Below the pieces are notes generated by a model, which saw only the letters and a list, made by a program, of their open reading frames with translations, was not told the origin of the DNA and made no database searches. DNA of 62,131 bases. Source: an uncultured Saprospiraceae bacterium (lineage in GTDB: Bacteria; Bacteroidota; Bacteroidia; Chitinophagales; Saprospiraceae). Each line of letters opens with the position of its first letter. Positions within the stretch are counted from its first letter, which is position 1. The DNA is taken from NCBI GenBank assembly GCA_964467315.1, contig CAYXSA010000012.1, forward strand, positions 1-62,131. Reading direction: 5' to 3'. Shown here one piece after another: positions 1,265 to 61,819 of the stretch. The position numbers and the translations under genes were made by a program.

Positions 1265-1379
1265 CTTTTTTAGGGCCTGCCCCTGCTCCCCGCGCCGCGA
1301 TTTTCGCGGCGCTTAAAGGTCGCAGGGTCGGGCTATCCGTTGCAGCACCTTACGGTGCTTCCACTGCTATCCCTCAGGC
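1265..1379 (+). repeat. Palindromic intergenic repeat family, F orientation (TTTTTTaGGGCcTGCCCC ... GGTCGGGCTATCCG ... CTATCCCTCAgGC); pairs with 1448-1581
   Basis: Shared terminal and internal motifs with about 26 other copies in the window. Confidence 0.8.
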
Positions 1380-1447
1380 TTTTTTATAAAATTGCCCTAT
1401 CCCAAAAAAATTACTTTCTTTCTCGCCGCGCAAAGGCGCGGCGAGCC

Positions 1448-1581
1448 GCGTGAGGGATAGAAGCGGCGCGAAGCGGTACGCAGCGGCAAGCCGCTGCGTA
1501 CTGAAACCGCGCATAGCCCGACCGCAGCCCTGCGTGCCGCCAAAGGCGGCACGCAGGGCTGCGGGCACGCCCAAAAAAAAA
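1448..1581 (-). repeat. Palindromic intergenic repeat family, R orientation (GCGTGAGGGATAG ... ATAGCCCGACC ... GGGCACGCCCAAAAAAAA); 'empty' pair with 1265-1379, spacer 68 bp
   Basis: Motif match; inner end preceded by a copy-specific GC hairpin (1423-1447). Confidence 0.8.
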
Positions 1582-1687
1582 TAAAAATTCTCCCCTGCTC
1601 TGAAACTTTAGACCTATATTAGGGGTTTAATTGGCATATCAAAAGACTTAGTTTGAAAAACAAACTAAGATACAAACCACTCTACAT

Positions 1688-58647: not shown

Positions 58648-58974
58648 ACTTACAAGAAGTTGGTTGAATTTGTCTAATTTTGGGCACTATTTAACAGACA
58701 TTCATCACTTTTCGCCCAAAAAACATTCAAATTTACGCACTTAGTAGCGATATAACCAAATTTTAGCGAAAAAAACTTTGGTAGGCTCTAAAATAAAAAG
58801 GCTTGCTAATTGCTAAAAAACGAATAAAAAGTAATAAAAAGTCTGCTAAAAGATATTAAATTCCAATATGCGTAAAAAGTCGAAATAAAAATTGGCGGCT
58901 CTTTGCAAATAAAAAAATATTCGCTAAGCCTTAAAACGCATAAATCATTGATAATCAATCTATTACGTCAAAAA

Positions 58975-61722
58975 ATGCTCACGGTCAAACAAATTCGGCA
59001 AAAATTCCTCGATTTCTTCCGCGAAAGACAGCATAAAATAGTGCCTGCCGCGCCTATTGTCAATCAAAATGACCCGACATTGATGTTCATCAATTCGGGA
59101 ATGGCGCAATTCAAAGACTTTTTTCTGGGCAATCAAACGCCAACAGCTCCGCGCATCGCGGATACGCAAAAATGCCTTCGCGTATCGGGCAAACACAACG
59201 ATTTGGAAGACGTAGGCATGGACGGCACACATCATACGATGTTTGAGATGCTGGGCAACTGGTCTTTTGGCGATTATTTCAAAGAAGAGGCGATTCGCTG
59301 GTCTTGGGAGCTGCTCACACAGGAATACGGCTTAGCGAAAGACCGTATCTATGCCACCGTCTTCGGCGGCGATACTGCCGAAAATCTCGCCGCAGACGAA
59401 GAAGCCAAAGCCCTTTGGCAACGCTATTTGCCCGATGAGCAGATTTTATATGGCAACAAGAAAGATAATTTTTGGGAAATGGGCGACGTAGGCCCCTGTG
59501 GACCCTGCTCCGAAATCCACGTAGATATGCGCACGGACGAAGAGCGCGCAAAGGTAGCAGGACGCGATTTGGTCAATCAAGACCACCCGAAAGTTATTGA
59601 GATTTGGAATAACGTCTTTATGCAGTTTGAGCGCTATTGGAACGAGGGCAAAGGCGGCAATAGCGCCCTGGTCGCTTTCGAGAAAAGCTATGCAGGCACA
59701 CGCGACGGCAAAGCCTTCAAACAAGCCCGCGCACAAAAGCATACAGAAGTAACGGCGCTAAAAGAACTCTCCGCCAAACACGTAGATACAGGCATGGGCT
59801 ACGAACGCCTTTGCATGGTACTCGAAGGCAAAACCTCTACCTACGACACGGGCGTATTTCGCCCACTTATACAGTTTATAGAGCAGGCTACAGGCTACAA
59901 TTATACAGGCTCTTACGAGCGCTCGGCAAAATCGGATATCGCTATGCGGGTGCTTGCCGACCATATCCGCGCCGTTGTGCTGATTATCGCCGACGGGCAA
60001 TTGCCTTCCTCCACTGGAGCGGGTTATGTGCTGCGCCGCATCTTGCGCCGTGCGGTACGCTATTACTATAGCTTTTTGGGGCGGAATACGCCACTGCTGT
60101 ATAAGCTGCTGCCTTTGGTTTCTGATATGTTCGACGGCGTTTTCGATGAGGTCAAAGCTCAAGAAACTTTTATCGCTAATGTCATAAAAAGCGAAGAAGA
60201 AGCCTTCTTGCGTACCCTTTCTATGGGGCTGCGCCGCATCGAAGAACTGCAAATAGCCGAAGGCGGCAGCCTCGACGGACAAACCGCCTTCGAGTTGTAC
60301 GATACCTTCGGTTTCCCCGTCGACCTTACCAAATTGATAGCCTCCGAGCGCGGCTGGACACTCGACGAACAGGCATTCGAACAGGCGCTCTCCGAGCAAA
60401 AATCCCGCTCTCGACAAGACGCTCAAAAGGAAGCAGGCAACTGGGTAGAGCTTATTCCCAATTTTACCGACTTCCAATTTGTCGGCTACGACGAACTCCA
60501 GACCCTTAGCCGAGTGGTAAAATACCGCACGGTTAAAGCCAAAGGCGAAACCCAATATCATATCGTACTCGACCAAACGCCCTTCTATCCCGAAGGCGGC
60601 GGACAGGTCGGCGATAAAGGCACGCTGAATATCGGCGGCGTAAATACGAGCATCATCGACACGAAAAAGGAAAATAATCTAATCCTGCATATCGCCGAGA
60701 TGCTGCCCGAAGACCCCACCGCACCCGTGCGCGCAAGCGTCAATACTCATGCCCGCGAAGCTACTGCCGCCAATCACACATCTACGCACCTCCTACACGC
60801 TGCTTTGCGTCAGGTACTCGGCACGCACGTACAGCAAAAAGGCTCCCTCGTTTGCCCCGATTATCTGCGTTTCGACTTTTCGCACTATCAAAAATTGAGC
60901 GAAGAGGAATTGGCAAATATCGAAACCATCGTAAACGTCGCCATTCGCCAAAATATCCCCCTCCAAGAAGAGCGAAATCTACCCATCGAGGAGGCAAAAG
61001 AACGCGGCGCTATGATGCTTTTCGGCGAAAAATACGGCGAAACCGTCCGCCTTATCACCTTCGATAAATACTATTCGCAAGAACTTTGCGGCGGCTGCCA
61101 CGTAAAAAATACGGGCGAAATCGGCTTTTTCAAAATTATCGCCGAAAGCTCCATACAGGCAGGCGTGCGCCGTATCGAAGCCATCAGCGGCGAAGCCGCC
61201 GCCAACTGGGTGCGCGAACAAAGCCAACTTGTCGCCGCCTTGCGCGAGCAACTGAAATCGCCCGCCGACCTGCTCAAAGCCGTCGCCGACCTCCAAGAAG
61301 AGCATAAAAATCTTCAAAAACAGGTCGCCCAACTGCAACTCCTCCAAGCCGAACAAATCAAAACCCGCCTCATCGCTTCCGCGCAGGCGCTCGCGGGCAA
61401 GCCCCTGCATTATATCGGCGCGGTCATCGACCTTAGCGACAAGGAAACAATAAAGCACCTTTGCAGCGAATTGCATCAGTCTATGCCCAATGCCGTCGTC
61501 GTTTTGGGCAATCTGGACGGCGATAAAGCCGCGCTTACGGTCTCCATGCCCCGCGAACTCGCTACCACGCACCAACTCAACGCGGGCAAACTCATCAAAA
61601 CTATCGCGCAGCACATACAAGGCGGCGGCGGTGGGCAGGCGTTTTTTGCGACTGCAGGCGGCAAAAATCCCGACGGTTTGCAAGCCGCCATTCAGCAAGC
61701 GCAGGCGCTTTTGTCCGAATAG
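58975..61722 (+). CDS. alaS: Alanyl-tRNA synthetase
   Basis: Class II catalytic domain, tRNA-recognition and editing domains (HTSTHLLH, CGGCHV); the ORF's 24-aa 5' extension is unlikely, so the start is set at MLTVKQIRQKF. Confidence 0.95.
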   Translation: MLTVKQIRQKFLDFFRERQHKIVPAAPIVNQNDPTLMFINSGMAQFKDFFLGNQTPTAPRIADTQKCLRVSGKHNDLEDVGMDGTHHTMFEMLGNWSFGDYFKEEAIRWSWELLTQEYGLAKDRIYATVFGGDTAENLAADEEAKALWQRYLPDEQILYGNKKDNFWEMGDVGPCGPCSEIHVDMRTDEERAKVAGRDLVNQDHPKVIEIWNNVFMQFERYWNEGKGGNSALVAFEKSYAGTRDGKAFKQARAQKHTEVTALKELSAKHVDTGMGYERLCMVLEGKTSTYDTGVFRPLIQFIEQATGYNYTGSYERSAKSDIAMRVLADHIRAVVLIIADGQLPSSTGAGYVLRRILRRAVRYYYSFLGRNTPLLYKLLPLVSDMFDGVFDEVKAQETFIANVIKSEEEAFLRTLSMGLRRIEELQIAEGGSLDGQTAFELYDTFGFPVDLTKLIASERGWTLDEQAFEQALSEQKSRSRQDAQKEAGNWVELIPNFTDFQFVGYDELQTLSRVVKYRTVKAKGETQYHIVLDQTPFYPEGGGQVGDKGTLNIGGVNTSIIDTKKENNLILHIAEMLPEDPTAPVRASVNTHAREATAANHTSTHLLHAALRQVLGTHVQQKGSLVCPDYLRFDFSHYQKLSEEELANIETIVNVAIRQNIPLQEERNLPIEEAKERGAMMLFGEKYGETVRLITFDKYYSQELCGGCHVKNTGEIGFFKIIAESSIQAGVRRIEAISGEAAANWVREQSQLVAALREQLKSPADLLKAVADLQEEHKNLQKQVAQLQLLQAEQIKTRLIASAQALAGKPLHYIGAVIDLSDKETIKHLCSELHQSMPNAVVVLGNLDGDKAALTVSMPRELATTHQLNAGKLIKTIAQHIQGGGGGQAFFATAGGKNPDGLQAAIQQAQALLSE

Positions 61723-61728
61723 ATAGCT

Positions 61729-61819
61729 TTTTTTTGGGGCGTGCCCGCCTGCCCAAAAAGGGGCAGGCGGTCGGGCTATTTGAGCCGTAGCATACTACGG
61801 CTCTACATATCCCTCACGC
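61729..61819 (+). repeat. Palindromic repeat family, F orientation, short form; followed by alaS terminator hairpin 61820-61860
   Basis: TTTTTTTTGGGGCGTGCCCGCCTGCCCAAAAAGGGGCAGGCGGTCGGGCTATTTGAGCCGTAGCATACTACGGCTCTACATATCCCTCACGC. Confidence 0.85.

Follow-up and report, generated by a model that had tools for sequence, protein, structure and literature searches.

Strictly alternating structured repeats that bracket single genes on a Saprospiraceae contig, probably related to REP and BIME elements

How can 27 copies of a structured intergenic repeat come to alternate strictly in orientation along a bacterial chromosome, with their inner ends turned toward short intervals that mostly hold a single gene? 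The question is raised by a stretch of 62,131 nucleotides from an uncultured Saprospiraceae bacterium (GenBank assembly GCA_964467315.1, contig CAYXSA010000012.1), which is referred to throughout as the window. The repeats are probably mosaic, selfish DNA resembling repetitive extragenic palindromic (REP) sequences and bacterial interspersed mosaic elements (BIMEs), and they settle beside transcription terminators. The favoured explanation of their order, to which a probability of roughly 40% is assigned, is that such DNA arises as inverted doublets, as in BIMEs and in REPINs (REP doublets forming hairpins).

Alternation and spacing of the copies

Copies on the forward strand are designated F and those on the reverse strand R, numbered along the window; each has an outer end at a T-run and an inner end. 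The outer motif TTTTTTGGGCGTGCCC is matched 25 times in the window at no more than two mismatches, where 0.14 matches are expected, and the inner motif CTATCCCTCACGC 23 times against 0.9 expected. A covariance model trained on 67 copies from other genomes only, without the window copies, recovers 25 of the 27 copies at 18 to 80 bits, and with its filters off it revealed no further hidden copies in the window. Together the copies comprise about 3.5 kb, or 5.7% of the window; the family has expanded in this lineage to a density of one per 2.3 kb, and all 27 copies are intergenic. The two remaining copies, R6v and F12v, represent a second subfamily, TTTTTTTGGGGGCTGCGC ... GCCCTCCGCATCGC(G)TAGCCC..TGCAAAC, and each occupies the slot and the orientation that alternation demands.

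The order along the window is F, R, F, R throughout. All 26 adjacencies among the 27 elements are opposite, for which the probability under random orientation is 2^-26. When only the copies detected by the model are considered, 22 of 24 adjacencies alternate (P ~2e-5), and both exceptions are the slots of R6v and F12v. Thirteen inner-facing and 13 outer-facing intervals take turns, and their sizes constitute a regularity separate from the alternation. The F-to-R gaps, across which inner ends face each other, measure 68, 1129, 1742, 54, 1625, 1196, 1083, 649, 1476, 913, 120, 1307 and 1643 bp, while the R-to-F gaps, across which the outer T-run ends face, measure 3288, 2962, 3460, 7364, 2714, 1726, 1860, 2924, 3998, 2862, 4123, 2643 and 4122 bp. 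The inner-facing class thus spans 54-1742 bp with zero to two genes and the outer-facing class 1726-7364 bp (Mann-Whitney U = 1, p = 2e-5). Since the two classes barely overlap, the inward-facing inverted pair acts as a unit, with a maximum length of 1959 bp from outer end to outer end.

These results agree with a preliminary description of the locus, made from the sequence alone, which had counted about 27 modular hairpin copies in about 6% of the window, in strict alternation and with inner ends facing short, mostly single-gene intervals. Other points of that description need correction. The two partners that it called degenerate are real and sit in the right slots, but they are the second-subfamily copies at 28245-28400 (-) and 51486-51636 (+) rather than sequences near 28190 and 51575. 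The pairs without a gene number three, not four: F1/R1, F4/R4 and F11/R11, with spacers of 68, 54 and 120 bp, respectively. The proposal that the unit is an inverted pair, empty or filled, is supported by the gap classes. Each arm of about 130 bp, however, is a self-closing, complete element that occurs in single copies across the phylum, and not one half of a terminal inverted repeat (TIR).

Two candidate sources of the order were rejected. Partners are not recent duplicates, as neighbouring copies show no greater similarity than randomly chosen ones (p = 0.34), save for F8/R8. Orientation is not dictated by gene context either, as both orientations occur between co-directional forward-strand genes and no rule is apparent in the 113 loci listed from other genomes. 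Because F, R, F, R persists through runs of forward-strand genes, gene orientation is not the source of the alternation.

A structured scaffold with nested REP hairpins

Read in their own orientation, the window copies consist of a T-run, GGGCGTGCCC, a hypervariable GC-rich hairpin (stem A), GGTCGGGCTATnCG, at least one further hairpin (stem B) and (TA)CTATCCCTCACGC, usually followed by A-rich sequence, for an element length of about 87-215 nt. The RNAalifold consensus of the 67 aligned copies from other genomes is a three-way junction formed by a closing helix of 5 bp, stem A and a long arm. The closing helix is GCGTG/CACGC in the window and hairpin A is hypervariable, while the long arm is conserved and irregular (GGGCUAU..CCGCU / CCGCU..CUAUCCC) with a variable tip and an A-run after it. 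In order, this arm comprises GGG/CCC, a conserved C.U mismatch, UA/UA, a 3x3 loop, a 2-bp GC/GC helix, a second 3x3 loop and the variable stem B. The minimum-free-energy structure of individual window copies is likewise a three-way junction, whichever strand is folded (z = -2.9 to -7.5). In 39 of the 67 copies from other genomes, a conserved U.G pair weakly favours the F strand.

Covariation provides strong support for the three-way junction as the phylum-wide scaffold. Among the 67 copies, 93.5% of paired cells are complementary, compared with 82% after shuffling and 33-55% when the partners are slid, and double changes number 151 against 46 in the shuffled set. The 5' strand of the closing helix was located by complementarity, so that its 100% pairing is partly built in. 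An exact 5-nt complement lies within 160 nt upstream in 144 of 158 motif matches (~15% expected), always in the context TTTGG-xxxxx-CC, and at least nine co-varying closing pentamers occur, such as GCATG/CATGC, GCGAG/CTCGC and GGCTG/CAGCC. In relatives at ~68-70% mvaD identity, the same repeat has both ends altered together (GGGCGAGCC ... CTATCCCTCTCGC), a change in concert that points to pairing between the two ends. The ends read T6(GG)GCGTG and CACGC A6, so that the same T6(GG)GCGTG start is read inward from either side, and the co-variation of the 5-nt core as a helix across genomes fits pairing at least as well as protein-recognised TIRs. In Rfam 15, only the tRNA-Cys passes the gathering threshold over the whole window, and at E <= 10 no credible match was obtained over 42950-47450, which holds four copies.

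A scan for GTCGGGCTAT-N(25-55)-CTATCCCTC in one genome per GTDB species returned at least 113 loci in Flavobacterium, Pedobacter, Chitinophagaceae, Sphingobacterium, Algoriphagus, Hymenobacter, Tannerellaceae, Saprospiraceae and others. A profile of translated elements revealed copies on three or more additional NCBI contigs, and viral contigs gave 8 matches in 2.9 million. At the 113 loci listed, the upstream gene is on the same strand in 53 cases and on the opposite strand in 49, while the downstream gene is opposite in 63 and on the same strand in 38; all-against-all BLAST of the flanking open reading frames (ORFs) gave no recurrent neighbouring gene family, and no transposase gene recurs beside these loci. 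Dispersed selfish DNA would be expected to look this way, having neither an orientation rule nor a recurrent neighbour. This makes the element a repeat of the whole phylum Bacteroidota that is structured, dispersed and intergenic, and not a cis-regulatory leader, a gene-linked RNA or a novelty of this one genome. Orthologous Pedobacter loci (L077, L083 and L113) retain it with compensatory changes.

In most of these genomes an 8-kb locus holds one copy, and copies elsewhere are single, in tandem or in inverted pairs. Loci outside the window with two strong copies show 13 opposite and 4 same-orientation adjacencies, a count that leaves out the tandem arrays in L038 and L110. Alternation is thus preferred there without being strict. 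Inverted, inner-facing pairs enclose one gene of 656 aa in L068, where the partners share the otherwise hypervariable stem A, three small genes in L080, and a GSCFA gene plus two others in L175; two further such pairs occur in L006. The array in L110 (520-987) has four copies with a period of 121 nt, and that in L038 (5933-6371) has two copies 330 nt apart. The contig L170 is a predicted viral contig of 9169 nt from IMG/VR, which carries three copies arranged R, F, F; two of these lie no more than 550 nt from the contig ends.

REP, REPIN and BIME elements are mobilised by REP-associated tyrosine transposases (RAYTs, or TnpA_REP), which are Y1 enzymes of the HUH (histidine-hydrophobic-histidine) type. 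The interchangeable modules of the window copies include canonical GTAG-tagged REP hairpins at the arm tips. When GT[AG]G followed by a hairpin was sought across the window, 20 perfect hairpins with GTAG, an 8-bp stem and a 4-nt loop were found, every one inside an element. GTAG lies on the strand antisense to F in all of them but the palindromic double-foot copies, which have it on both strands. Three types are present: GGGCGAAT-CAAC-ATTCGCCC, AGCCGTAG-CATG-CTACGGCT and GGGCAGAC..GTCTGCCC. The CATG-loop type is a double-foot GTAG...CTAC hairpin (GTAG-AGCCGTAGCATGCTACGGCT-CTAC), nested at differing positions in 8-9 window elements, for example at 11085-11112, 24173-24200 and 27008-27035. Its 22-nt core is identical in 41 unrelated metagenome contigs (L125-L165) with a GC content of 0.30-0.63, most often at a local palindrome's apex, as though it inserted into hairpin loops; the three-way-junction element was found in none of these 41 contigs. 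GTAG-tagged and double-foot REPs are substrates tied to RAYT enzymes, of which subclasses 2.4 and 2.6 occur in Bacteroidetes (PMC6006769). With REP hairpins nested in a phylum-wide scaffold, the window repeats are mosaics, which is the concept of the BIME.

The position of the copies is also informative. The copies are flanked 5' by a T-run, often after a hairpin, and 3' by A-rich sequence. Directly before the outer T-run there is often, in other genomes as well, a hairpin that ends in GGGC(G) and resembles the terminator of the neighbouring gene. The element itself is not an intrinsic terminator, as on both strands the T-run precedes the structure and an A-run follows it; terminator-like hairpins instead adjoin it. 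Five of the seven strongest of these (at least 9 GC pairs) adjoin the inner ends of R3, R5, R9, R10 and R11, and two are bidirectional. Seventeen copies lie in sense in the 3' untranslated region (3'UTR) position of the gene on their outer side, six, in antisense, are located at the bracketed gene's 3' end, and four lie in divergent regions. Six divergent (promoter) regions within the R-to-F blocks contain no element, and this, together with the copies at gene 3' ends, is the pattern expected of selfish DNA that persists where it is least harmful. Many copies have an optional extra GC-rich hairpin past the inner end (for example at 9334-9365 and 57463-57498, with 36 nt shared by F3 and R13), which suggests either a further 3' module of the element or captured terminators. 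A perfect 20-bp bidirectional terminator-like hairpin is also present at 41591-41636, after the tRNA-Cys, in a convergent region without an element.

Explanations for the inverted pairs

If the copies are born as inverted doublets, joined inner end to inner end like REPs in REPINs and BIMEs, the order F, R, F, R would follow along the chromosome without any further rule. In terms of orientation, an F-spacer-R doublet reads the same after reverse complementation, so that its insertion always yields F R F R. Inversion, deletion or exchange of segments between copies would leave the alternation unchanged, and it would be broken only by a solitary insertion or by the decay of one partner; the same logic has been stated for dif modules (PMC13141974). 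If copies were added one at a time, an alternating array would have to go through states that do not alternate, and this argues for birth as inverted pairs or for very short-lived solitary copies. The partner could be laid down locally on the opposite strand, in a stretch that is single-stranded at one time, and the pair length of at most 1959 bp suggests that both arms fall within one single-stranded stretch, as in single-stranded DNA transposition. The enzyme would be of the HUH/RAYT type and encoded elsewhere in the genome. Among REPs, inverted dimers predominate, direct dimers are rare and DNA sometimes lies between the partners (PMC3733652). The recurrence of inverted pairs around genes in other lineages (L068, L080, L175 and L006) also favours birth as doublets. 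The unusual point of the layout is the doublet spacer of 54-1742 bp with zero to two genes.

A broader role for the pairs is doubtful but deserves mention. The oriented elements may split the chromosome into two alternating classes of modules, of which the short, inner-facing ones could be inverted, exchanged or mobilised by the cell or by a resident HUH or tyrosine enzyme. The arrangement would then correspond to plasmid dif modules, but on a chromosome and with a REP scaffold, or to REPINs with gene cargo.

Several observations weigh against birth as doublets. The housekeeping genes fmt and mvaD lie inside pairs, which this mechanism does not explain. The spacers of the three empty doublets are mutually unrelated and partners are mostly not each other's nearest relatives (permutation p = 0.34; F8/R8 is the exception), so that there is no direct sign of recent unit-wise copying of doublets. 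Elsewhere the alternation is broken, as in L006 (F R F F R), L170 (R F F) and L043 (R R). These rule breakers include relatives with a similar density of elements (L006 and L170), and single copies and direct tandem arrays occur in other genomes (L038, L110 and L043). The scaffold is far longer than a REP and has no GT[AG]G foot, with GTCG preceding its long arm, and both strands of the window copies fold equally well, so that this genome offers no evidence of strand. No transposase or recombinase domain was detected in the 41 window ORFs scanned with Pfam, with ORFs such as 57631-58371 and 57673-58647 outside the scan, a result in line with the preliminary description, which had reported no transposase, integrase or recombinase. 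A scan for the motifs of Y1 HUH proteins gave a single match, a RAYT-like protein of 206 aa in L124 (2101-2818, (-); NHFH ... YIHNNP), and this ORF is flanked by different hairpins, of the ACCCTGAYAGGGT type. Finally, L002, a relative at about 84% nucleotide identity, lacks R7, which could reflect a loss in that relative or a later, solitary gain of R7. The RAYT-like ORF is separated by 15-40 nt from a three-way-junction copy at 1978-2086.

The neighbourhood of mvaD in relatives bears on several of the alternatives. The window mvaD is closest to those of Saprospiraceae (Neolewinella and Aureispira), at ~55% identity. The samples SRR15237804 and ERR7850081 harbour the window's organism and a relative at about 84% identity. 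In L002, whose nucleotide identity to the window is 85% over holA and 82% over mvaD, 68 bp with a small hairpin separate these genes, and a variant element adjoins the mvaD stop codon, like F7 in the window. The small hairpin may be what is left of the inner end of the element (CTATCCTTCACGG), which it resembles, or equally an unrelated hairpin of REP type like those of L124. As holA and mvaD are adjacent here in the absence of R7, mvaD is not obviously cassette-delivered. Identical mvaD proteins are encoded beside gyrB in L006 and beside ARD/4HBT in L008, with the junction at the element, and further relatives have mvaD with yet other neighbours. The elements thus coincide with rearrangement breakpoints, and genome rearrangement in Saprospiraceae-like lineages appears to use them as a substrate. 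The surroundings of mvaD in L006 and L010 are too diverged to align. The composition of the bracketed genes is near-native: their third-position GC content (GC3) is 0.533 compared with 0.586 (p = 0.014), or p = 0.03 without one orphan ORF (ORFan). The preliminary description had asked whether enclosed genes differ in GC or codon usage; the lower GC3 is such a difference, but the shift is modest and partly due to that one ORFan.

It is improbable that the pairs are mobile gene cassettes, in which F-gene-R would form a unit resembling a foldback or composite transposon, the arms would be transposon ends, empty pairs would be the MITE (miniature inverted-repeat transposable element) form and filled pairs would carry cargo. 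This would account for the behaviour of the pair as a unit, for the TIR-like ends, for bracketed genes that are mostly accessory-looking singles of slightly lower GC3, for F8 and R8 as the sole rare-core copies around a low-GC ORFan without homologues, and for the bracketed or element-adjacent position of mvaD and GSCFA in several gene contexts among relatives. However, no target-site duplication was found in the 25- to 90-nt flanks of all 27 copies and no transposase gene in the window, the two arms of a pair mostly differ in length and modules, fmt and mvaD are single-copy housekeeping genes of native composition, L002 keeps the adjacency of holA and mvaD without the R7 arm, and each arm is a complete unit found alone across the phylum. 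The reading of the enclosed genes as cargo is not supported by these observations. Somewhat more doubtful still are oriented sites for a site-specific recombinase, such as a tyrosine recombinase. Genes would then lie in modules between inverse sites; modules would invert or exchange while sites never arise singly, as with dif, and the two module types would have to alternate. A core kept throughout the phylum, down to fixed mismatches of the long arm, hints at a conserved protein partner, and the gene order around mvaD differs among close relatives with the junction at an element. Homologous recombination explains these rearrangements equally, however, and the elements are structured and 90-215 nt long rather than 28-bp core sites, without resemblance to XerC/D sites, though no dif/XerCD consensus search was made. 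Additionally, the window yielded no recombinase gene, the alternation is not kept in other genomes with the same conserved core, and multiplication to one site per 2.3 kb beside single-copy genes is unaccounted for.

A function selected by the host has a small chance of being correct, whether as insulators, as stems that process or stabilise RNA in the manner of rRNA processing stems, or as oriented boundaries of DNA domains. In the RNA version, the sense copy before a gene and the antisense copy after it would pair within a read-through transcript to give a long stem. The 17 sense copies in 3'UTR positions, the six antisense copies at the 3' ends of bracketed genes, the concentration of five of the seven strongest terminator-like hairpins at inner ends, the strongly conserved structure and its compensatory changes in the Pedobacter loci are all compatible with such a role. 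It is opposed by the lack of an orientation rule relative to genes at the 113 loci listed, by the four window copies in divergent promoter regions, which lie outside any flanking mRNA, by the variable hairpins of partners, which share too little sequence for a continuous duplex, and by the fact that strict pairing is not seen in other genomes. Quite unlikely is a history of independent single insertions in random orientation, followed by the loss of neighbouring direct repeats through recombination or slippage that deleted essential genes. The six divergent promoter regions without an element imply that purifying selection shapes persistence, and direct dimers are rare for REPs too (PMC3733652). 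Any single insertion into an alternating array, however, makes a direct adjacency, which disfavours this history by logic, and the inner-end-to-inner-end facing of all 13 short gaps is not explained. As each F has about 13 direct F copies within 60 kb, alternation does not remove the deletion load, and selection against direct repeats is not its cause. Chance or an artefact of assembly is hardly credible. The contig does come from a repeat-rich metagenome-assembled genome, but the alternation (P ~2^-26) and the gap asymmetry (p = 2e-5) both oppose this explanation, and graph assemblers are not known to have a bias that imposes alternating orientation. In an independent Logan assembly from another sample (contig L001), mvaD is flanked on both sides by inverted inner ends, and this repetition of the bracketed arrangement makes an artefact unlikely.

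The copies along the window and their relation to known systems

F copies lie on the + strand and R copies on the - strand, and scores are those of the covariance model. The first empty pair consists of F1 (1267..1379; 70.6 bits), with the closing-helix variant GCCTG/CAGGC, and R1 (1448..1578; 45.1 bits), and lies between divergent genes. The gene fmt is bracketed by F2 (4867..5002; 71.2 bits) on its left and R2 (6132..6237; 74.6 bits) on its right, the latter containing the GTAG-REP hairpin GTAGGGGCGAATCAACATTCGCCC. F3 (9200..9329; 68.9 bits) is in the 3'UTR position of a CvpA gene, with a hairpin and T-run next to it at 9334-9369, and R3 (11072..11158; 55.8 bits) has a strong terminator-like hairpin at its inner end (11035-11061). 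F4 (14619..14752; 67.4 bits), directly past the terminator hairpin and T-run of ruvA, is the left arm of the second empty pair; its right arm R4 (14807..15020), at 18 bits over the core plus the end motifs, is the longest copy (214 nt) and has several nested hairpins. F5 (22385..22535; 46.2 bits) lies downstream of a gene for 2426 aa, and R5 (24161..24247; 58.8 bits) has a bidirectional terminator-like hairpin at 24122-24151 at its inner end. F6 (26962..27048; 46.6 bits) is situated between serS and the GSCFA gene. R6v (28245..28400), without a match to the covariance model, has both its T-run+GGGGGCTGCGC start and its GCCCTCCGCATCGC..TAGCCC..TGCAAAC end in common with F12v.

F7 (30127..30285), a split match of 24.6 and 15.9 bits, lies 5 nt from the mvaD stop codon and is also present in the Logan contig L001, while R7 (31369..31523; 56.3 bits), the copy missing in L002, lies between holA and mvaD. 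F8 (33384..33503; 34.6 bits) has a variant core (GGTCGCGTGTTGCG / CTACACCCGCTCACGC) and its nearest relative is R8 (34153..34290; 24.2 bits), which shares this rare variant. F9 (37215..37399; 42.3 bits) has a long nested stem A, and R9 (38876..39010; 65.2 bits) adjoins a terminator-like hairpin (38839-38866) at its inner end. F10 (43009..43118; 72.8 bits) has the three-way junction as its minimum-free-energy fold (z = -6.2), and R10 (44032..44141; 73.6 bits) has a bidirectional terminator-like hairpin (43992-44022) at its inner end. The third empty pair is made up of F11 (47004..47116; 65.3 bits), 2 nt past the stop codon of a convergent gene, and R11 (47237..47362; 62.5 bits), with a terminator-like hairpin (47202-47227) at its inner end. 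F12v (51486..51636) includes the GTAG double-foot hairpin, and R12 (52944..53056) is the best match in the window at 80.5 bits. The remaining copies are F13 (55700..55855; 41.4 bits), R13 (57499..57608; 70.4 bits) and F14 (61731..61819; 49.7 bits), which lies past alaS and whose partner would fall outside the contig. Folds were computed for R12 and R13.

Pfam agrees with the gene identities given in the preliminary description, namely fmt, GT4, TraB/GumN, GSCFA, mvaD, WG repeat and FkbM, and the remaining gene map consists of ordinary chromosomal genes. Five of the scanned ORFs have no Pfam match (10526-10942, 29373-30032, 32714-33373, 33590-34147 and 36190-37209). The ORFan at 33590-34147 (+), which encodes 185 aa at a GC content of 0.36 and a GC3 of 0.33, lies between F8 and R8 and has no homologues among 5.8 billion proteins. 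Beside the first empty pair, a fusion of protoglobin and STAS domains is encoded at 202-1077 (-), and the protein of 838 aa encoded at 1688-4204 (+) has a major-vault-protein shoulder and repeat domains (PF11978 5e-29, PF17795). A gene of this kind is unusual for a bacterium. Two short-period repeats are also present. A tandem array with a period of 47 bp (22623-23070; at least seven overlapping register copies of 73-100% identity) lies between F5 and R5, upstream of the TraB/GumN gene, and a repeat with a period of 21 bp (CCGAG.A.ATAGATGGCATCG) runs from just past F14 to the end of the contig (61985-62131) and may be a coding, heptad-like repeat.

If inverted pairs are indeed born or moved as units, the biology of REPINs and BIMEs would extend from doublets of 100 bp to gene-enclosing units of kilobase size. 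Doublet units would also give a topological account of long-range orientation order, in which alternation is invariant under recombination between copies, and would provide a counterpart on the chromosome for the origin of alternating dif modules, which is still unexplained. Apart from the pairing, the repeats constitute a phylum-wide, covariation-supported family absent from Rfam 15 that marks terminator-proximal safe havens in Bacteroidota.

Among known systems, the dif (pdif) modules of Acinetobacter plasmids have the same strictly alternating, oriented sites, the same small and often single-gene modules between inverse sites, and the same division of modules into two classes according to the site end that points inward. 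They differ in that dif sites are 28-bp XerC/XerD sites borne on plasmids, for which Xer-dependent inversion and deletion have been shown experimentally, whereas the window elements are long, structured and chromosomal, flank housekeeping genes and have no known recombinase. MITEs and composite or foldback transposons resemble the window elements in being non-coding, with short TIRs or TIR-like ends, with inverted copies around genes and with empty and filled forms. In contrast, the window elements have no target-site duplication, no transposase gene that would mark a related autonomous insertion sequence was found in the window or recurrently at the 113 loci listed, and each flank is a complete element, usually dissimilar to the other flank of its pair. 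The attC sites of integrons are likewise structured, imperfect palindromes with a conserved base and a variable centre that bound single genes. They lie in the same orientation beside intI with attI and Pc, however, and their cassettes are promoterless, none of which holds for the window. As integron sites are directly oriented beside an integrase gene, while the window sites alternate and the scanned ORFs include no integrase gene, the integron-like boundary system considered in the preliminary description is excluded.

The closest analogues are the REP, REPIN and BIME elements. Like them, the window elements are extragenic, high-copy, hairpin-forming repeats built as mosaics of interchangeable modules; successive units are inverted and direct dimers are rare; and the copies lie at gene 3' ends beside terminators, with window modules that include GTAG-foot hairpins, one of them the double-foot GTAG...CTAC type. 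In contrast to the 20-40-nt hairpin of a REP, the window unit is a three-way junction of 90-215 nt whose closing helix is flanked by a T-run and an A-run, and its partners are separated by as much as 1.7 kb and enclose whole genes, while REP partners are 1-100 bp apart. The scaffold also lacks the GT[AG]G foot, and no cognate RAYT is encoded in the 62-kb window. The REP table of Quentin et al. gives only short hairpins for Bacteroidetes RAYTs, and the FopS sRNAs (small RNAs) are different, with a single-stranded 5' region and a terminator, in Bacteroidaceae only. No description of the scaffold family was found in a limited search of the literature (Bacteroidetes REP, MITE, Saprospiraceae). The family therefore appears to be undescribed, yet it belongs within the world of REPs, BIMEs and MITEs: the preliminary view of an unrecognised element class gives way to close analogues that also form inverted dimers (PMC3733652), with GTAG-tagged hairpins in the window itself. 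Overall, what is unusual is the strictly alternating, gene-enclosing layout at the scale of kilobases, together with a scaffold in the form of a three-way junction.

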